Shown here: in pieces, positions 5,335-14,240 of the stretch
How the letters are laid out: each line of letters begins with the position of its first letter
Position numbering within the stretch: the stretch's first letter is position 1
Source of the DNA: an uncultured Verrucomicrobiae bacterium
GTDB taxonomy: Bacteria; Verrucomicrobiota; Verrucomicrobiia; Limisphaerales; UBA11358
NCBI GenBank assembly: GCA_963780535.1
Contig: CAWACS010000027.1
Span: 451 to 64,450 of the forward strand
Direction: 5' to 3'
Length of the DNA stretch: 64,000 bases
Program-made: the position numbers and the translations under genes
Notes under the pieces: model-generated
Seen by the model: only the letters and a program-made list of their open reading frames with translations
Told to the model about the DNA's origin: nothing
Database searches by the model: none

Positions 5335-6519
5335 TCATTTCAGTTTAAGCACCGGGGGCGCCGCGTGTTCAAAGGCCTTCATGCGCAGGGAGCCGGCCGT
5401 GGAGGCCATATCCCCGCGGGTTTTTTTGATGCCATCAATGCCGCGCGTGATCACGCTGCGTTTGGTGCAATAGAGCAGGGCGGTTTCCTCGCTGATGTGT
5501 CCGTGTTCGTAGGCATCCAGGCAGGCCTGGTCGAAGGTGCGCCAGCCGAACGTGGCGCTGGCCTCGATGATTTCGTAAAAGGTTTTTCCCTCGCTCTCGC
5601 CAAGGCGGATGGCCTCCTGCGTGCGGAGGTTGGACCCCATCATTTCAATGAGCGCGAACCGCCCGCCGCCGATTTGGGGCACGAGCCGCTGGCTGACCAC
5701 ACAGCGCAGCGAATCCGCCAGACGGATGCGAATTTGTTCCTGCTCTTCCGGATCGAACATGCCCAGAATACGGTTGATCGTTTCGCCGGCGTTGACGGTG
5801 TGCAGCGTGCTGAGAACCAAATGGCCGGTTTCCGCAGCGCTCAAGGCAATTTTGACGGTTTCCTGGTCCCGCATTTCGCCGACCAGAATGACCTTGGGCG
5901 CCTGACGCAACGCCGCGCGCAAGCCATTTGCGTAACTGTCGAAATCAATGCCCAGTTCACGTTGATTAAACGTCGCCCGCATGTGCTTGTGAACATATTC
6001 CACCGGGTCTTCCAAGGTGACGATATGGACGGGCTTGTCGCGGTTGACCTCATTGAGAATGGCGGCCAGCGTGGTGGATTTGCCGGAACCGGTGGCGCCG
6101 GTGACAAGCACCAGGCCGGTCTTTTCCTTGGGGATCTCCTTGAAAATCTCCGGTAATTTCAATTGCGTCAGCGTGGGAATCGTCGCGTTCAACTGGCGGC
6201 AGACAATGGAGAAATTTCCGCGTTGCGAGAAAATATTGATGCGGAAGCGTGCCTGGTCCGACAGGGTATAGGAGGCGTCACAGGAACCGTGTCGCAGCAG
6301 GTCTTCAATGTGCCAGAGATTATCGCCAATGATATTCAGGGCGATCATCTCGACCTGATACGGTGTGAGTTTTTCGATCGGCGGGTCGAACGTCACCGGT
6401 TTAAGTTCGCCGTAAGCTTCCACCTGGGGCGGGCGGTCCACGGTGAACAGCAAATCCGACACCTCCGGTTGGGAGGCCAGCATGGTGGTCAGCATTTGGT
6501 CCAGTTCGGCGCGGCGCAT
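5335..6519 (-). CDS. pilT: PilT/PilU family type IV pilus retraction ATPase
   Basis: Walker A GATGSGKST, TLEDPVE, ALRQAPKVILVGEMRD and GHLVLSTLHT. Confidence 0.9.
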   Translation of the reverse strand: MRRAELDQMLTTMLASQPEVSDLLFTVDRPPQVEAYGELKPVTFDPPIEKLTPYQVEMIALNIIGDNLWHIEDLLRHGSCDASYTLSDQARFRINIFSQRGNFSIVCRQLNATIPTLTQLKLPEIFKEIPKEKTGLVLVTGATGSGKSTTLAAILNEVNRDKPVHIVTLEDPVEYVHKHMRATFNQRELGIDFDSYANGLRAALRQAPKVILVGEMRDQETVKIALSAAETGHLVLSTLHTVNAGETINRILGMFDPEEQEQIRIRLADSLRCVVSQRLVPQIGGGRFALIEMMGSNLRTQEAIRLGESEGKTFYEIIEASATFGWRTFDQACLDAYEHGHISEETALLYCTKRSVITRGIDGIKKTRGDMASTAGSLRMKAFEHAAPPVLKLK

Positions 6520-6521
6520 AG

Positions 6522-7619
6522 TTACAGGGTGTCTTCGTCATCCGGCGGATGGGCCAGCAGCGGGCGGAATTTCTTTTTATCCAGCGATTTCTCGTAGGCT
6601 TCCTCGGGCGAAATGCGTTTCATGCGCACATGCTCCATGATGTGGTCGTCCAGCGGCTGGTTGCCGATTTTTTTGCCCACCTGGATCATGCCGTTGATTT
6701 GATGCGTCTTGCCCTCGCGCACCAGATTGGCCACGGCGGTGTTGAAAACCAGAATCTCAAATGCGGCCACGCGGCCCTTTTTGTCGGTGCGTTTGAACAG
6801 CGTTTGCGCCACCACCCCCTTCAACGCCTCGGAAAGCGTCTGGCGGATTTTGTTTTGCTGCTCGGCCGGGAAGACGTTGATGACGCGGTCCACGGTCTTG
6901 GCCGCGCTCTGCGTATGCAGGGTGCCGAACACCAGGTGGCCGGTCGCGGCGGCGGTGATGGCCAGTTCGATGGTCTCCAAATCGCGCATTTCACCGACGA
7001 GCACGATGTCCGGGTCTTCGCGCAGCGCGCCGCGGAGTCCCGAGGCAAAGGATTTGGTGTGCAGACCGGTTTCCCGATGGTTGACCAGGCAATTCTTGCT
7101 TTCGTGGACGAATTCGATCGGGTCTTCCAGCGTGATGATGTGGTCCTTGCGATTGGTGTTGCAGTAATCGACCATCGCCGCCAGCGTGGTGGATTTGCCG
7201 GAGCCGGTCGGCCCGGTGACGAGGACGAGGCCACGGTGCAGCATGCAGAACTTTTTGAGCACGGGCGGCAGCGGCGCCTCCAGTTTTTCAAAATCCTCGA
7301 AGGAGAGGACGCGGCTGGGAATCTGCCGGAACACGGCGCCCACGCCGTTTTTCTGGTTGAAGAAATTGACACGGAAACGCGAGACGTTGGGGATCTCGTA
7401 GCCGAAGTCCACGTCGCCGGTTTCCTCGAACTGTTTGATTTTGTAATCCGGCGCAATTTCGTAGAGCATGCCCTTGAGCACGTCGCTCTCAAGCGGTGGA
7501 AAATCCACGCGCTGAAGTTCGCCGTTGATGCGCAACATGGGCGGGTTGCCGGAGGCCATGTGCAGGTCGGACGCCTTCTGTTCGAACATCAAATTGAAAA
7601 ACGCATCGATTTTGGCCAT
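6522..7619 (-). CDS. pilT: Type IV pilus twitching motility ATPase PilT
   Basis: GPTGSGKST, TLEDPIE, LREDPDIVLVGEMRD, GHLVFGTLHT and an AIRNLIRE-like AVANLVRE motif. Confidence 0.93.
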   Translation of the reverse strand: MAKIDAFFNLMFEQKASDLHMASGNPPMLRINGELQRVDFPPLESDVLKGMLYEIAPDYKIKQFEETGDVDFGYEIPNVSRFRVNFFNQKNGVGAVFRQIPSRVLSFEDFEKLEAPLPPVLKKFCMLHRGLVLVTGPTGSGKSTTLAAMVDYCNTNRKDHIITLEDPIEFVHESKNCLVNHRETGLHTKSFASGLRGALREDPDIVLVGEMRDLETIELAITAAATGHLVFGTLHTQSAAKTVDRVINVFPAEQQNKIRQTLSEALKGVVAQTLFKRTDKKGRVAAFEILVFNTAVANLVREGKTHQINGMIQVGKKIGNQPLDDHIMEHVRMKRISPEEAYEKSLDKKKFRPLLAHPPDDEDTL

Positions 7620-7672
7620 ATAGTCAGTTCTCTTGCGCGCACAATAAGCTAGAGCCGCGCCAAATACAAAAA

Positions 7673-8866: not shown

Positions 8867-8975
8867 GGTTATTCCTCTCCGCCTCGAACGGGGAGAGGAG
8901 TTAAAAGTGAGGTGTAGAGGGCTGTTAGATGCCATCTTTTCCTCGAATGGAACAATCTTGAACGGCGGCGAAGCC

Positions 8976-9069
8976 GGATTAGCGGCGGGTTGGCGTGTGT
9001 GGCGGTCGCAGGGTAGGGAAATGGCTAAACACTTGAATCGAGCCACACACGCCAACCCGCCGCTAATCC
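8976..9069. repeat. Perfect 28-bp inverted repeat (38-nt loop) abutting the terminal CRISPR repeat
   Basis: GGATTAGCGGCGGGTTGGCGTGTGTGGC (8976-9003) is the exact reverse complement of 9042-9069. Confidence 0.92.
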
Positions 9070-9458
9070 CGCCTCACAATTCCTGAATTCGCGCCGACTG
9101 AAGCTTCGCGCGAAGTAAAGCAAACAGAAAACAACAATCCGCCTCACAATTCCTGAATTCGCGCCGACTGAAGCCGTCGGCCAGTCCATTACGAAACTCA
9201 CCATCACTCCGCCTCACAATTCCTGAATTCGCGCCGACTGAAGCCGCCAGGCCCATGTTGGCGTTAGACAGGGCCGCGTTCCGCCTCACAATTCCTGAAT
9301 TCGCGCCGACTGAAGCGTAAAAAGCCACGTTCGGCGGGTTGTTGCCCTTTTCCGCCTCACAATTCCTGAATTCGCGCCGACTGAAGCAAGACCGTCCAGC
9401 GCAAGAACGTCGCCAACCTCATCCGCCTCACAATTCCTGAATTCGCGCCGACTGAAGC
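9069..9458 (-). CRISPR. CRISPR array, 6 repeats and 5 spacers (type V-B associated)
   Basis: Identical 36-bp repeat, minus strand GCTTCAGTCGGCGCGAATTCAGGAATTGTGAGGCGG, at 9069, 9139, 9209, 9281, 9352 and 9423. Spacers are 34, 34, 36, 35 and 35 bp. Five of six repeats share one further base. Orientation inferred from cas gene strand, leader position and tracr G:U pairing. Confidence 0.98.
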
Positions 9459-9640
9459 TCACCCCTGCCGTCAGGCCCATTTTCCGCTGCGATTCGCTGC
9501 TGTTGGCGAGCGATAAGGCTTCGCAGCTTTCCAAATGATTTTGTCGGCAGGGTCTTCATGCCTTAGAGCTTTGCTTTCAATCGTTTAATTAAAGCGAGCG
9601 TCCGTGGGGCCGAGCGCCAGCACTTCAGCGCTCGCGCCGC
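9459..9640 (-). promoter_or_regulatory. CRISPR leader
   Basis: Non-coding stretch between the tracr region and the first repeat. Contains the inverted pair GCGAGCG (9594-9600)/CGCTCGC (9629-9635), a third GCGAGCG at 9506-9512, and an IHF-like TTTCAATCGTTTA at 9575-9587. Confidence 0.65.
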
Positions 9641-9644
9641 GTTA

Positions 9645-9732
9645 GCCGCAATCAGGCGCAGTCGTTCGCGATTTCAAAAATCATGCCTTTCCAATGGCGG
9701 AAGAAAGGTGGTCGGTGCCCGTAGGCAGGATT
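9645..9732 (-). ncRNA. Predicted tracrRNA (Cas12b type); ends approximate
   Basis: 27-nt anti-repeat at 9659-9685 pairs with the repeat. Stem CCUUUC/GAAAGG displays a loop UCCGCC complementary to the repeat 3' end GGCGG(A). 5' hairpin UGCC-UACG-GGCA at 9716-9727. Located between cas2 and the array. Confidence 0.8.
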
Positions 9733-9769
9733 ATTCAATGCCTTTCCCGAAAACTTGCAAGCCTGAAAA

Positions 9770-10060
9770 TCAAATAATCGTCACCCGCGAACGCACTTCG
9801 TAGGGCAGACCCATTGCTTCAATAATCAAGCTGGCGTCTTTTGAGGTCGCGCCTAGCGAGACGAACAACACCTGGTCCTCGTCGTGATTGAGCAAGTCCT
9901 GAAGTTCAGCCTTCAATTTGGCCAGACGCAAATCGTCCAGCGGACATTCAAAAACGGAGTATTGCAGCCGCACGCCAAAACCCTCCAGCGAGCGCGCCAC
10001 TTTTCGCAACCGTTTCGGGTCGCTGATGTCGTAGCTCACCAGATAGCGGAGCCGGCTCAT
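9770..10060 (-). CDS. cas2: CRISPR-associated endonuclease Cas2
   Basis: MSRLRYLVSYDISDPKRLRKV...G.RLQYSVFEC; the ATG at 10060 overlaps the cas1 stop (ATGA). Confidence 0.96.
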   Translation of the reverse strand: MSRLRYLVSYDISDPKRLRKVARSLEGFGVRLQYSVFECPLDDLRLAKLKAELQDLLNHDEDQVLFVSLGATSKDASLIIEAMGLPYEVRSRVTII

Positions 10061-11871
10061 CGTGTGGTGAATCCGTGGTAGGTCAACGCCTCGCCGCGCA
10101 CAAACCGCCACAACTGCCGCACCTGCACTTCGAGCATCCGGCGATACGCCATTTTGTAGCTAAATTCCGGGTGGCTGACTTCCGCGTCCAGCCGGCGAAA
10201 CCACGCTTCCCAAAACGGCCGGCGTCCCTTGTCCGTCAAAAAAGTTCCGTTGGCGCTGCTCATGAAATCTTCCGGGCCAAGCTCGCCGCGATTGATGAGG
10301 CTGATCGCCACGCTGTCGGCAACGAGCGGCCGAAATTCTTCCATCAAATCCAGCGCCAGGGCAGGGCGGCCATAGCGCGGTTGATGCATGAAACCGAGAA
10401 ACGGATCCAGCCCGACGGAATAGCAGACGCCGGTGAGTTCCTTCGCCAGCATCGAATAGCCGAGCGACAGGAGCGCATTCACCGGATCGCGCGGCGGACG
10501 GCGATTGCGTCCGCGCCAGTCAAATTTCCAGTCGTCGCGCTGTTTGAGCATGGACTCGAACTGCTCGAAATAAAGCGCCGCCGCGCTTCCTTCGATGCCA
10601 AGCAATTGCGTCAGGTCGCGCGCCGATTCGGTCGCATCACGAAAGCCCGACATCAAACTCAACACGCGTTCCGGCGCTTCACCATTGCGCATGAGCATCA
10701 CGCGCTGATTGTGGATTTTGGCGCGGATGACTTCGCGTGCGAGTTGCAATCGCACGCCGGGCAGTTCAAAAAGCCGATATTGTCCGCGCCGGGCATCAAC
10801 GCCGCTGGCGGGCAGCCCGCGTAACAAACCGATGAACCGGCCCGCCGGTGAAAAATAGGAAACATCAATGCCGAGTTCCAAACACGTCTCCGCTGCCTGT
10901 GCCGTCATTTGCACCGCGCCGTAACAATAAATCGCCCGCACCTGCTGGCCGGGAATTTTGCGCGCGTCCTCGCCTTTGACACTGACGATCAATTCATCAC
11001 CGCGCTGGCCGATTTGCGCGCCCGCCGTCTGCACCACCAGCACTTCGCCGTCGTCACCGTCGGGCCGGGGCGGTTGCAACGTGGGTTCTTTGTCAGTGGA
11101 TTCGGCAGCAAAATCCAATGCTTCCAAAATTTTATCTCGGAGATCATCTTCCGATTGGCCGGCGAAACCGAATTGAAGCTGCCCGTCTGACACGGCAACT
11201 TTCCGTCGTTTCGCCCACCAGTGTGATTCATTCGGCAGGCAGACGGGATAGGCGGAGCAACCAAGACACCGCGCGTCGTTTTTTAATGGTGGTGGACAGT
11301 GGCCGGAAGCGGCCAATGCTTTTGCGTCGGATATGGCCTGTCTGGTTTTGGACAATAAATCTTCGCCAATCTCCACCGGCACGCGCCGCTTGTCCGCCGC
11401 GTAGTAAATGATTGCTCCCGAAACTTTCACGCCGTGTTCCTGCAACAGCAGGGCGTAAGCGCCGACTTGAATGGATTCCGGCTCGCGCGCTTCGCGTTCG
11501 CCTTCGCTGGTGCGCCGGGCTGAGCCCTTTTTGTAATCCACGATTTGCGCGCCTTCCGGGCCACCCTCGACCAGATCCATCACGCCGACGATGCCCAGCG
11601 TCTCGCTTTCCAACCGCAAGCTGCGGAGCTTTGCGCCTTCGGGAAGATTTTCGGAAAGCGCCTTGGCCTTTTCTTCTTCCAGGCGCGAAGGCGCGTCCAC
11701 ATTCCGATGGACATGAGAACCGGCGACCGTGTCCGCACTTTCCTGAAAAATGTTTTCAACCCACTGGAAATAAAACAGGCGCGGACAATAAACGAAATTG
11801 TTGAGACGACGCACCGGCATCACCGGCTGACCCTCCATTCCGCCTTGAGTTTGAAGGCTCGCTTCGCTCAT
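10057..11871 (-). CDS. cas1: Cas4-Cas1 fusion protein
   Basis: N-terminal Cas4 (YCPR, DLVE..VDYKKG, CLGCSAYPVC Fe-S cysteines). C-terminal Cas1 (LGIEGSAAALYF, RNRRPPRDPVNALLSLGY, GLDPFLGFMH, LALDLMEEFRP). Confidence 0.96.
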   Translation of the reverse strand: MSEASLQTQGGMEGQPVMPVRRLNNFVYCPRLFYFQWVENIFQESADTVAGSHVHRNVDAPSRLEEEKAKALSENLPEGAKLRSLRLESETLGIVGVMDLVEGGPEGAQIVDYKKGSARRTSEGEREAREPESIQVGAYALLLQEHGVKVSGAIIYYAADKRRVPVEIGEDLLSKTRQAISDAKALAASGHCPPPLKNDARCLGCSAYPVCLPNESHWWAKRRKVAVSDGQLQFGFAGQSEDDLRDKILEALDFAAESTDKEPTLQPPRPDGDDGEVLVVQTAGAQIGQRGDELIVSVKGEDARKIPGQQVRAIYCYGAVQMTAQAAETCLELGIDVSYFSPAGRFIGLLRGLPASGVDARRGQYRLFELPGVRLQLAREVIRAKIHNQRVMLMRNGEAPERVLSLMSGFRDATESARDLTQLLGIEGSAAALYFEQFESMLKQRDDWKFDWRGRNRRPPRDPVNALLSLGYSMLAKELTGVCYSVGLDPFLGFMHQPRYGRPALALDLMEEFRPLVADSVAISLINRGELGPEDFMSSANGTFLTDKGRRPFWEAWFRRLDAEVSHPEFSYKMAYRRMLEVQVRQLWRFVRGEALTYHGFTTR

Positions 11872-11972
11872 CCACCGCCTCCCTTGGCCGGCTTGGTCAT
11901 TTGCGATTGGTCATCGGCTATCGCCGCGCCAGCGGCCAGCCCGGCGTTGACTTGAATCGGCGCTTCGCTCAT
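11868..11972 (-). CDS. Possible 34-aa small ORF translationally coupled to cas4-cas1
   Basis: MSEAPIQVNAGLAAGAAIADDQSQMTKPAKGGGG*. Fills the cas12b-cas1 gap and its TGA overlaps the cas1 ATG. Confidence 0.35.
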   Translation of the reverse strand: MSEAPIQVNAGLAAGAAIADDQSQMTKPAKGGGG

Positions 11973-11977
11973 GGCGG

Positions 11978-13224
11978 TTACATGGTTTTCGCCTTTTGAA
12001 TCCGGGCATTGTTGATTGCTTCAATCCGCCTTGTGCATTCCTGTTCGACTCGCTTGAGATAAGCGCCTTGAGGATACGCATAGAATTCATTCTCGCTTTG
12101 CTTGCATTTGAAAGCTTCCTTTTTTAGCCAATCATTTTCGGGCAACCAGTCATGTTCTGGATGCTCTACGAAGAACGGCGGATATTCCGATGATTGACCG
12201 GATTCTGAATCCGCGTTTTCACCGGAATTTGTTCCATCAGCTTTGGCCGCAGATTTCTTTTTTCCTTTTTTCCGGGTTTCAACCGGTGTGGATGATTGCA
12301 GATCAGCCGCAATCGCATCAGCACTCGCGGCCCGCATCAATCGTTCTTCCGCCGGGAGTTTTCCGAACCATCCGCGCCAATTTGTGACGCGCACTTCAGT
12401 TTCAGAAACTTTTTTCGTTCGCAGCCGGGGGAAGATGTCCCATCGTTGCGGGTCGGCGATTGCACGCAATCCGATGTTTCCCGCCGCCCCAATGTCCGCG
12501 TTGAAAGTATCCTTCCCGCCAAGCGGCGCGAGAACCGGCACGAAATCCGTTCCACCTTCAACCGCCAGCGCAAGTTTACCCGGATAGTCTTTATGGGCTT
12601 CAAATTGAGCCGCCAGTTTCTTGATGTCCTTCGCAAGCTGTGTTTCGCCGCCCAACTTTGTCTTGTCGTTCACCCATTTCGCATACGGATATTGCATTTC
12701 AAAGTCGCGCGGCACTTCATTCACCCGGACGCCGGGCAAGCCGGTTCTGGAATCGAAATGCGATGAAAACGCCGGGTCAACCAGCATCAGAGTGATTCCG
12801 AACGGGCGGCACATATCTTCCAGCTTTTCGATGATTGCACGGTGTGCCCACTGCATGAGACGGGAATTCTCCGAACGGGTGCGTTCCTGGCTCATCTTGT
12901 AGCGTTCCAAATTTTCCAAAACGATGACCGAGCAGCGCGGATACTCCTTGCCGTTTTTATCCTTGCGCCGCTTGTATTCTCCGTGCAAATCCACTTCGGC
13001 TTTTCGCGTCTTCTTGTCATGCACTTCCTCTGGACTTTTTAATTCCATGTATGCTTTCCTCAACGAGGACTTCGTAGGTGCGATAAAGTTCGTTTGCCAT
13101 ATTGGTTGCAGGGTTAATTCACGGCGTCCTGAAACAATTCGTGGTTCTGCCAGAGGACATTGATATCAAGTTCCTGTTGGTCGTCGAAAACCTTGCTGAC
13201 GCGGCCTTGGTAGATGCGATTCAT
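11978..13224 (-). pseudogene. cas12b: cas12b (C2c1) with large internal deletion: N-terminal 36 aa (13114-13224) plus C-terminal ~356 aa (11978-13048)
   Basis: N-piece MNRIYQGRV...VLWQNHELFQDAVN*. C-piece DLHGEY..VIVLENLERY..RTRSENSRLMQWAHR (RuvC-II), SSHFDSRTGLPG and NADIGAAGNIGLR (RuvC-III). The pieces are in different frames only ~66 bp apart. REC lobe, most of WED and RuvC-I are absent. Confidence 0.88.
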
Positions 13225-13358
13225 AAGTTTTGCCCTCGCGAACGGCCCGGAGGTTCGGGAAGTTCTAACGCCAGATTCCAGGAATGGCCAGCGGATTTTT
13301 TACGAGGCACCGGTGGTGATATCGCAATAAGTCGAGAGACGAGGGGCGAGGGCAAACA

Positions 13359-14240
13359 TCAAACAGCCGGCCGCCACGCGGGGATTTTCAAACGGCTGCG
13401 GCGGAGTTCGACTGAATCCACGCTGCGCCCCAGCCGCTGGGCAATGAATTTATCCGGCCTTGTGCCCAGAAGTTTATCCTCCTTGGACGTCCAAAGTTTG
13501 CGGATGCGCCCGGCCCGATTCGGGATGCCCAGTTCGCAGCGCCGCGCCCGTACTGCGATTTTCGTCCGGCCAATTTTCCTGGCAATTTCCTCGTCCAGTT
13601 TCGTGCCCAACAAGCTGTCTTCTTCCGGCCGCCAGGCCTGTGGACGGCATGGAGGAATGTGCAGTTTCAGGCGGCGTGCGGCAATTGCCTCGTAGCTTCG
13701 CTTGAATTGCGAAACGAGGTCCTTGTCGGGTACGGTGCCGAGCAAGTTGTCTTCCTGTGGAGTCCACGGACGAGAATCGGGGCCGAATCGGCGGACACCT
13801 ATTTGGCGGCGGCGCGCCGCGACGGCCTGAGACGTGCGACCGAGTTTCTGGGCGACAGCGGCGTCCAGCATCGTTCCCAGAAGCCGGTCCTCCCCAGGTT
13901 TCCAGCGTCTCATTTCCGGAGAATGCCTGATCGCCGGCTTGAGCGGCGGAATTTTTAACGCATTACGCCGGTAGTTTACCTGCGAGGCAGGACGACGAAG
14001 CCGGCGGCTGATTTCCAGGTCGGAATAGCGGCCCAGCATCCTGATTTCGTGCGCTGTCCATCGGCGCGGCGGTGTGGGCAGCCGGATACGCCGGCGTTCG
14101 CGTTCGGCCACGACTTCCTTGATGGTGCGGCCAAAGCGCCAGGCCAGAACGGAGTCAGGCTTTTTACCGAGCAACTTCAGTTCGGCAACGGTCCAAGGCA
14201 AGCCCGGACGCTTGATTCGTTTTCTTGTGGCGGCAGGCAT
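13359..14240 (-). CDS. Basic protein with six tandem HTH/Myb-like repeats
   Basis: Six ~44-52-aa units with consensus W(T)xxE(D)xLLGTxxDxx(I/V)AxxLGR(T/S)xxAVxxRRxxLxI. Confidence 0.75.
   Translation of the reverse strand: MPAATRKRIKRPGLPWTVAELKLLGKKPDSVLAWRFGRTIKEVVAERERRRIRLPTPPRRWTAHEIRMLGRYSDLEISRRLRRPASQVNYRRNALKIPPLKPAIRHSPEMRRWKPGEDRLLGTMLDAAVAQKLGRTSQAVAARRRQIGVRRFGPDSRPWTPQEDNLLGTVPDKDLVSQFKRSYEAIAARRLKLHIPPCRPQAWRPEEDSLLGTKLDEEIARKIGRTKIAVRARRCELGIPNRAGRIRKLWTSKEDKLLGTRPDKFIAQRLGRSVDSVELRRSRLKIPAWRPAV

Follow-up and report, generated by a model that had tools for sequence, protein, structure and literature searches.

A decaying mosaic type V-B CRISPR locus of an uncultured Verrucomicrobiae bacterium, with signs of in situ cas12b replacement and a later 3,950-bp deletion

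Type V-B CRISPR loci carry, in this order, cas12b, a cas4-cas1 fusion, cas2, a trans-activating CRISPR RNA (tracrRNA) and the array, and decay of CRISPR loci is a familiar process. One such locus was analyzed in a 64,000-nucleotide (nt) stretch of DNA of an uncultured Verrucomicrobiae bacterium, hereafter called the window, which belongs to one contig (C27) of a 2.45-Mb genome bin of 58 contigs that is 58% complete. The locus, all features of which are on the minus strand, consists of a cas12b effector gene present as remnants only, cas4-cas1 and cas2, a predicted tracrRNA with an anti-repeat, and an array (Table 1). The analysis makes it probable that this is a decaying mosaic locus in which cas12b was replaced in situ and the gene was then hollowed out by a 3,950-bp deletion, with the adaptation genes, tracrRNA, leader and array left intact. 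Several relatives have lost parts of their V-B loci, and the present locus is most likely heading the same way; decay and effector shuffling are both known.

The larger piece of cas12b is an open reading frame (ORF) at 11978..13063 on the minus strand, 361 amino acids (aa) long from a TTG or 356 aa long from the ATG at 13048, which carries the motifs IVLENL and NADIGAAGN. An earlier reading of the bare sequence (the original prediction) had recognized the 356-aa ORF and both motifs in it, and the 361-aa ORF was found to match the Pfam family C2c1_RuvC-like with an E-value of 3.3e-24 and 86 bits against a curated cut-off of 27. A search of longer proteins with this C-terminal piece gave 109 matches. 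The closest, P0001, showed 92% aa identity and was itself cut by its 5.4-kb contig; dozens of further proteins were 53–74% identical, mostly 1,570–1,827 aa long, together with shorter, apparently truncated ones. One relative from a Verrucomicrobiota metagenome-assembled genome is labelled 'type V CRISPR-associated protein Cas12b' at NCBI. A second group of matches, from about 42% identity downwards, comprised proteins of about 1,360–1,680 aa. The full-length members of the long clade begin MANELYRTYEVLVEES, and by these sequence matches the C-terminal piece is assigned to a Cas12b clade of about 1,690 aa. The full-length Cas12b that the original prediction held possible in close relatives is present among the 109 matches; its figure of about 1100–1400 aa for a full Cas12b did not apply to this clade, in which the intact length is about 1,690 aa. 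Outside the family, a search of 400 further genomes of the phylum at E 1e-40 did not find the long clade with the query used. It has no solved structure, and a literature search found no paper on it, which is weak evidence of absence.

The N-terminus of the long-clade gene could be located separately. An ATG at 13100 opens 18 codons, MANELYRTYEVLVEESIH, which are 18/18 identical to residues 1–18 of P0003, P0005, P0013 and P0014. After codon 18 the frame continues for nine further codons (GIKKSRGSA) and ends at a TGA, giving 27 codons in all, and the C-terminal part lies in a different frame from this start. Using tblastn, residues 1–17 of P0004 were placed at 13100–13050 and residues 1338–1692 at 13048–11981. 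The space between the 356-aa ORF and a 36-aa ORF upstream of it, which had been taken for a gap, was found to hold this N-terminus of the clade's own.

The size of the missing part was determined by aligning Logan contigs of four metagenome runs (X1–X4) to window positions 11700–13600. An 8.4-kb contig of X2 was about 93% identical to the window over 1,114 nt, with window positions 13047–13115 at 2166–2234 of the record and 11936–13049 at 6182–7295, and carried 3,950 bp without counterpart in the window. The triplet CAT (13047–13049) fits both sides of the deletion as a 3-nt microhomology. In X4, two contigs end at the joint, and their loose ends translate to ...AHLILAEALG and PDHPKRAKDK, the text that flanks the gap in full-length homologues. 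The lengths 54 + 3,950 + 1,069 nt add up to 1,691 codons with no remainder, which would give an intact protein of 1,690 aa, in agreement with relatives of 1,688–1,727 aa. The frame changes at the joint because 3,950 is not a multiple of three. As shown by comparison with this 93%-identical contig, the long-clade gene has lost 3,950 bp between two CAT triplets.

Numbered by the 361-aa ORF, the remnant retains E50 (the RuvC-II Glu, in IVLENL) and D190 (the RuvC-III Asp, in NADIGAAGN), which align to E1220 and D1364 of ChCas12b from Candidatus Hydrogenedentes. The ChCas12b report names D767, E1220 and D1364 as the catalytic residues (PMC12204704). The RuvC-I Asp, D944 of P0004 in ILGVDLGNRFAAAF, lies within the deleted part; the ILGVDLGNRFAAAF stretch aligns to ChCas12b 757–776 (D767) with 14/20 identical residues and a weak domain score. 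Following the ChCas12b domain map, the OBD/WED domain, both helical (REC) domains and the bridge helix were lost, P0004 residues 19–1337 being absent. The RuvC triad is incomplete, the binding domains are absent, and the reading frame is interrupted. Owing to the loss of the RuvC-I Asp, OBD/WED, REC and the bridge helix, the locus is, judging from its gene content, unable to perform RNA-guided target cleavage. The alignment with homologues thereby bears out the proposal that most of cas12b (RuvC-I, REC, WED/OBD) was lost and that interference is dead, with the RuvC-II Glu and RuvC-III Asp kept. GAGGAA lies 8 nt upstream of the remnant's ATG at 13048, and the frame of the remnant contains no further lesion.

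The 36-aa ORF at 13224..13114 on the minus strand (MNRIYQGRV...LFQDAVN) is present with the sequence that the original prediction had quoted. It matched residues 1 to about 50 of the second clade, with blastp E-values of 1.4e-9 to 1e-3 against about 40 proteins of 1,359–1,680 aa, all at their N-termini. Among the 109 proteins its best match was P0076 (E 1.4e-9), whereas the clade of the C-terminal piece was matched with an E-value of 0.47 or worse. The N-terminus of the ~1,400-aa clade reads MNRIYQGRV...LWQHHELFQDAVNYY, and the start of the 1,436-aa cas12b of the relative G010 showed 90% nt identity to window 13234–13115. Window and G010 are colinear until GTGAATTA, after which G010 continues with TTACATC (NYYIVCLL...) and the window with a 13-nt 5' leader, followed by the large gene's ATG. 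The TAA of the stub is created by the junction, with the breakpoint at 13115 and at most 2 nt of homology. Contigs of X2 and X4 match the large-gene side of the window as far as 13115, where they diverge; contigs of X1 and X3 match the stub down to 13115–13124 and then run on as a different full-length gene. At the other end, window and G010 are 85% nt-identical from 11985 downward, the sequence between the stub and 11985 belongs to the other clade, and the large-gene contigs match the window down to 11936; the right-hand crossover therefore lies within the approximately 50 nt common to both parents.

These observations are consistent with the following course of events. In an ancestor with a G010-like locus, the resident cas12b of about 1,436 aa would have been swapped in situ for a cas12b of the ~1,690-aa clade. 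One crossover would have fallen in the ~50 nt of shared sequence at the cas12b end and cas4-cas1 start (11985–11936); the other junction, at 13115, would have been illegitimate, and of the old gene the first 36 codons would have remained as a stub. Later, 3,950 bp were lost between the CAT triplets, and codons 1–18 are now joined to the last 356 codons in a different frame. The stub and the mosaic would be the scar of an in situ effector replacement, and its direction, from the short to the large gene, is taken from the short-clade gene being the truncated one. The adaptation modules are 89–94% aa-identical across loci whose effectors share only 31–67% identity, and in a midpoint-rooted FastTree phylogeny of cas1(3')-cas2 the loci with 1,575–1,745-aa effectors were scattered among those with ~1,400-aa effectors. 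The locus is an example of the known in situ effector shuffling.

Twenty of 163 family genomes, including this one, matched the C-terminal piece. Open frames of 1,345–1,748 aa were present in 16 of them and short frames in four, namely the window (395), G074 (263), G122 (473) and G128 (215). G074 has a 44-codon stub, 13 nt, and then a MANELY start, the same arrangement as in the window, with the junction within 3 nt of the window's; its large gene has lost residues 80–747 and is broken again near residues 1305–1470. A search for the stub-plus-large-gene junction revealed one locus in genome contigs (L038) and two in metagenome contigs (L039, L040), the latter two with the same deletions as G074. 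In G122, a 459-aa C-terminal cas12b fragment lies near housekeeping genes, with cas4-cas1 and cas2 intact. No second cas12b match was found in G122 and G074 (92–95% complete). In G128 both cas12b and cas4-cas1 are fragmented, in G140 only part of cas2, the tracrRNA and the array are left, and G038 and G045 have tracrRNA and array with no cas genes within 13 kb. G022 carries an intact 1,745-aa cas12b and no stub.

Some further features of these loci were observed. The remnant of G122 (L074 4208–5587) starts 17 residues before the start of the window's remnant, both just ahead of ...ILAEALG, and directly adjoins unrelated opposite-strand ORFs without cas match; it is an independent 5' truncation at nearly the same protein position. 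G010 shows a gene insertion after cas12b codon 12, with duplication of the gene start: a 223-aa ORF6N-domain gene (L037 11420–12091, minus strand; Pfam E 2.1e-30) shares its first 12 codons with cas12b (MNRIYQGRVSKV) and ends where the intact 1,436-aa cas12b begins. Between cas4-cas1 and cas2, about 830–845 nt are inserted in G074 (L020 10220–11051) and G010 (L037 4351–5194), and the product of the G074 insert is a 177-aa member of the 23S rRNA-intervening-sequence family (Pfam E 4.7e-19). In G082, G120, G134 and G021, the cas1-cas2 stretch of the window was matched over the cas2 part only.

In the window and equally in G074, G010, G022 and G122, cas4-cas1 encodes 604 aa and is free of internal stops. 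Across the window and the four relatives, aa identity was 89–94% with dN/dS of 0.069–0.075, and for cas2 against the four relatives it was 92–97% with dN/dS of 0.02–0.07. Lineage-specific nonsynonymous to synonymous changes in cas4-cas1 numbered 17:85 in the window, 17:75 in G074, 14:78 in G010, 21:96 in G022 and 18:102 in G122. These counts give no sign of relaxed constraint in the effector-dead lineages, though the branches are long. The type V-B system of Alicyclobacillus acidoterrestris acquires spacers without Cas12b (PMC9419969). By analogy, the present locus is probably still able to transcribe guides and acquire spacers.

The adaptation module had been described in the original prediction as free of lesions; this holds for the reading frames, which are intact with dN/dS of about 0.07, and not for the start of cas4-cas1, which is duplicated by a 106-nt segment. 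At 11830–11935 the window has 106 nt where the contigs of X1–X4 have 5 nt (joint 11829/11936), and the segment is common to G010 at 91% identity. As a result, the first 14 codons of cas4-cas1, ATGAGCGAAGCG, are present twice in diverged form, with ATGs at 11972 and 11871. The upstream copy opens a 34-aa ORF only, and the downstream copy, preceded by GGGAGG, heads the intact 604-aa frame. The duplicated start may be the scar of an older exchange. The segment was also considered as the 3' end of the replaced gene, that is, as a window-specific scar; this was rejected, as G010 with its intact cas12b has the whole segment and the C-termini of the ~1,400-aa clade are unlike its translation.

Simple complementarity did not reveal the tracrRNA: at -38.8 kcal/mol, the best duplex lay within a background reaching -44.1. 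The stretch after cas2 is kept in 27/163 family genomes at 75–92% nt identity, and covariation in these 27 loci upheld the tracrRNA of the original prediction. RNAalifold analysis of the 27 sequences gave 32 pairs, nine of them with changes on both sides; 97.9% of the alignment cells were paired, and the covariation score was 0.270 compared to 0.121 in shuffles (0/500) and at most 0.061 with slid partners. The window forms 30/32 of the consensus pairs. The best-supported hairpin, 9708–9686, alternates between CCUUUC/GAAAGG, UCAACC/GGUUGA and other forms, and its loop, UCCGCC, is complementary to the 3' end of the repeat. An anti-repeat at about 9684–9657 varies with the repeat between loci; cognate anti-repeat:repeat duplexes had a mean of -34.0 versus -31.4 kcal/mol for non-cognate ones (0/5,000 permutations, a result that relatedness inflates). 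From covariation and the co-variation of the anti-repeat, 9594–9726 is predicted to be the tracrRNA.

Two types of anti-repeat and repeat could be distinguished. Type A occurs in the window and G074, and also in G126, G134 and G082 with effectors of 1,384–1,428 aa (3/3 intact loci); type B occurs in G022 (1,745 aa) and G008 (1,575 aa), 2/2 intact loci. The suggestion that guides for full-length relatives can be designed from this locus is risky in this light, the window being of type A and the 1,575–1,745-aa loci of type B. A non-cognate guide as the cause of decay was considered as an idea only and set aside, the intact loci numbering two and three and the duplexes being compensated. All six repeats of the window read AATTGTG where other loci with the same anti-repeat read AATCGTG; the variant turns one G-C of the repeat:anti-repeat duplex into a G-U, with a cognate energy of -31.4 compared to -34.2 kcal/mol.

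The six identical repeats reported before are six exact 36-nt copies, of which the terminal one has one mismatch if the repeat is defined as 37 nt, and the leader-proximal end of the array is at 9458. The check for a second cas12b or for arrays with this repeat, which had been proposed, was carried out on the assembled 58% of the genome: no other array or repeat copy was found beyond 9069–9458, and no other cas12b fragment, including the missing 3.95 kb, on the other contigs of the bin. The leader stretch is near-identical in G074, and its conservation is lower in G010 and G022. Loss of the effector through self-targeting was rejected, since the five spacers had no match elsewhere in the 58%-complete genome, in which the longest off-locus match was 19 nt with one mismatch. 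A search for phage protospacers of the five spacers gave a single match, at the chance-level E-value of 0.4. Immediately behind the array, and overlapping the last repeat, window 8970–9075 forms an inverted repeat of 34 nt, whose arms are 94% complementary and 38 nt apart. Rfam returned two microRNA matches only for the hairpin 8972–9074, at chance level, and G074 has a similar GC-rich sequence after its array; the inverted repeat may be a terminator or an end-of-array hairpin.

Several points weigh against replacement followed by deletion, or against parts of it. The genome is 58% complete, and a second effector or array may be present elsewhere. No read or contig with the deleted form was found in runs X1–X4, where the nearest-identical piece (99%) ends 50 nt before the joint; cover near the deletion joint was thin in X1. 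Among 22 metagenome runs none contained half of the sampled window words (best 0.29), a value that bears on neither absence nor habitat. The direction of the replacement and its single-event nature are inferred. The large gene of G074 is 71% nt-identical to that of the window compared to 89% for cas4-cas1, and one ancestral replacement shared by G074 and the window cannot be told apart from independent events. The cas1(3')-cas2 tree comprises 14 loci and carries no support values; nine further loci were left aside, two because they have no cas genes and seven on account of insertions or short matches. Rfam gave no match for the tracrRNA, and a simple scan found no consensus promoter or terminator at it.

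With these points in mind, an assembly artefact or minority variant has to be considered, in which one or both joints stem from co-occurring strains and the real locus carries a full-length cas12b. The fragmented and incomplete bin, the co-occurrence of strains with both parental forms in public metagenomes, the missing deleted form in X1–X4, and a right-hand crossover within 50 nt common to both parents, where an assembler may switch strains, all fit such an origin. The overlaps of 3 nt at the deletion and at most 2 nt at 13115 would, however, be too short for a k-mer graph without spanning reads, an analogous stub-plus-large-gene arrangement with its own deletions exists in G074 and in two separate metagenome contigs, and no fragment of the missing 3.95 kb lies on other contigs of the bin; an artefact is accordingly considered very improbable. 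The original prediction had assumed a single hollowed-out Cas12b gene whose two ends are the 36-aa ORF (N-terminal) and the 356-aa ORF (C-terminal). Although both pieces match Cas12b termini and lie 50–66 nt apart on the same strand, the 36-aa ORF fits the ~1,400-aa clade and not the clade of the C-terminal piece, the long clade's own N-terminus stands separately at 13100–13047, and the stub resembles the start of the G010 gene so closely, with both kinds of contig breaking at 13115, that this assumption can hardly be upheld.

It is improbable, too, that the effector-less unit is being maintained, whether to serve another effector in trans, to await a new one, or for a non-nuclease role of the remnant. 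Maintenance would be in line with the unrelaxed counts of cas4-cas1 in two effector-dead lineages, with the intact cas4-cas1 and cas2 that G122 and G074 keep beside a dead cas12b and no second one, and with the start signal and undamaged frame of the remnant. The terminal branches are nevertheless long (dS 0.49 to the nearest relative), and the counts would for this reason mostly reflect the time before the deletion. Later stages of loss are seen in G128, G140, G038 and G045, the assembled genome holds no other cas12b or array, and the remnant has neither the RuvC-I Asp nor any RNA- or DNA-binding domain. A wider reading, which we hold to be unlikely but worth stating, is that in this genus the unit of adaptation genes, tracrRNA and array is a long-lived chassis that outlives its effectors. 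The conserved first 12–45 codons of cas12b and the cas4-cas1 start would then anchor repeated in situ exchange of whole effector genes, with homology acting at one end and illegitimate joining at the other, and purifying selection would preserve dead intermediates (such as window, G074, G122) until recombination brings in a new effector. Hints of repeated events are the stubs in the window and G074, the ORF6N insertion in G010, and the duplication of the cas4-cas1 start in the window and G010. A locus in decay after an effector replacement remains the preferred reading.

Table 1. Features of the type V-B locus in the window
Feature	Position	Strand	Description
CRISPR array	9069..9458	-	Six identical 36-nt repeats and five unique spacers of 34–36 nt
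Leader (assigned from position only)	9459..9593	-	Between tracrRNA and first repeat
tracrRNA (predicted), ~133 nt	9594..9726	-	Structured, covarying
cas2, 96 aa, intact	9770..10060	-	Pfam CRISPR_Cas2 E 5.3e-21
cas4-cas1 fusion, 604 aa, intact	10057..11871	-	Pfam Cas1 E 6.5e-88, Cas4 E 1.5e-17
106-nt segment with second, diverged cas4-cas1 start	11830..11935	-	Shared with G010
cas12b 3' remnant, last 356 codons and stop (RuvC-II, Nuc, RuvC-III)	11978..13046	-	
Deletion joint, CAT 3-nt microhomology, out-of-frame fusion	13047..13049	-	
cas12b 5' remnant, codons 1–18 MANELYRTYEVLVEESIH	13047..13100	-	18/18 identical to relatives
Stub of a different ~1,436-aa cas12b, 36 codons, TAA made at the junction	13114..13224	-	Breakpoint 13115

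Outside the CRISPR locus, a 293-aa protein with at least five SANT/Myb-like repeats is encoded just upstream of the stub (window 13359–14240, minus strand). Its repeat pattern is W[TK]..E..LLG...D...A..LGR.....RR, and its Pfam Myb match (E 5.8e-4) is below the cut-off. A relative of this protein is found at the same position in G074, a paralogue on contig C24 of the window's own genome, and a single-repeat fragment directly upstream of the intact G022 cas12b; the protein may be a locus-associated regulator. Window 6000–7650 contains adjacent stretches with 79–95% identical segments at a spacing of 1,115 nt (e.g., 6043–6117 and 7158–7232), which look like tandem paralogues, and the translation of the ORF at 6522–7619 shows a Walker-type GPTGSGKST motif.

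Nuclease loss and adaptation modules beside unrelated effectors are both known and have usually been deduced from trees. Here both steps are readable at single-nucleotide resolution, with the parental forms visible in metagenomes. They suggest a concrete mechanism, in which one end of the replacement would be anchored by homology and the other joined illegitimately, a microhomology deletion coming afterwards. For work on the ~1,690-aa enzymes, the tracrRNA and repeat are better taken from a locus with an intact enzyme, such as G022, than from this mosaic locus.

Among solved structures, the best match of the remnant was ChCas12b (1,496 aa; PDB 9kln–9klq), with an E-value of 1.1e-19. This Cas12b is likewise long and falls in a clade apart from Aac and Bth, and its significant alignment is restricted to the C-terminal ~240 residues. 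AacCas12b (C2c1) of A. acidoterrestris (PDB 5u30, 5u31, 5u33) aligns with the remnant through residues 830–934 around the RuvC-II Glu (E 6e-16), a match confined to the RuvC/Nuc part; the protein has 1,130 aa compared to about 1,690 aa for the intact relatives found here, and in contrast to its locus the gene of the window is internally deleted and frameshifted. Cas12b3 is described as an inactivated type V-B variant in which key RuvC-I and RuvC-II residues are substituted (PMC12669027). Cas12b3 and the cas12b remnant both represent V-B effectors without nuclease activity; unlike Cas12b3, the gene of the window is a frameshifted deletion remnant without binding domains, which points to decay and not to repurposing. 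Known effector shuffling likewise places closely related adaptation genes beside distant effectors at the same place. Compared with the known cases, the present locus differs in that cas12b was exchanged within type V-B and that physical scars of the exchange are left, namely a 36-codon stub, a breakpoint resolved to 1–2 nt, and both parental forms in metagenome contigs.

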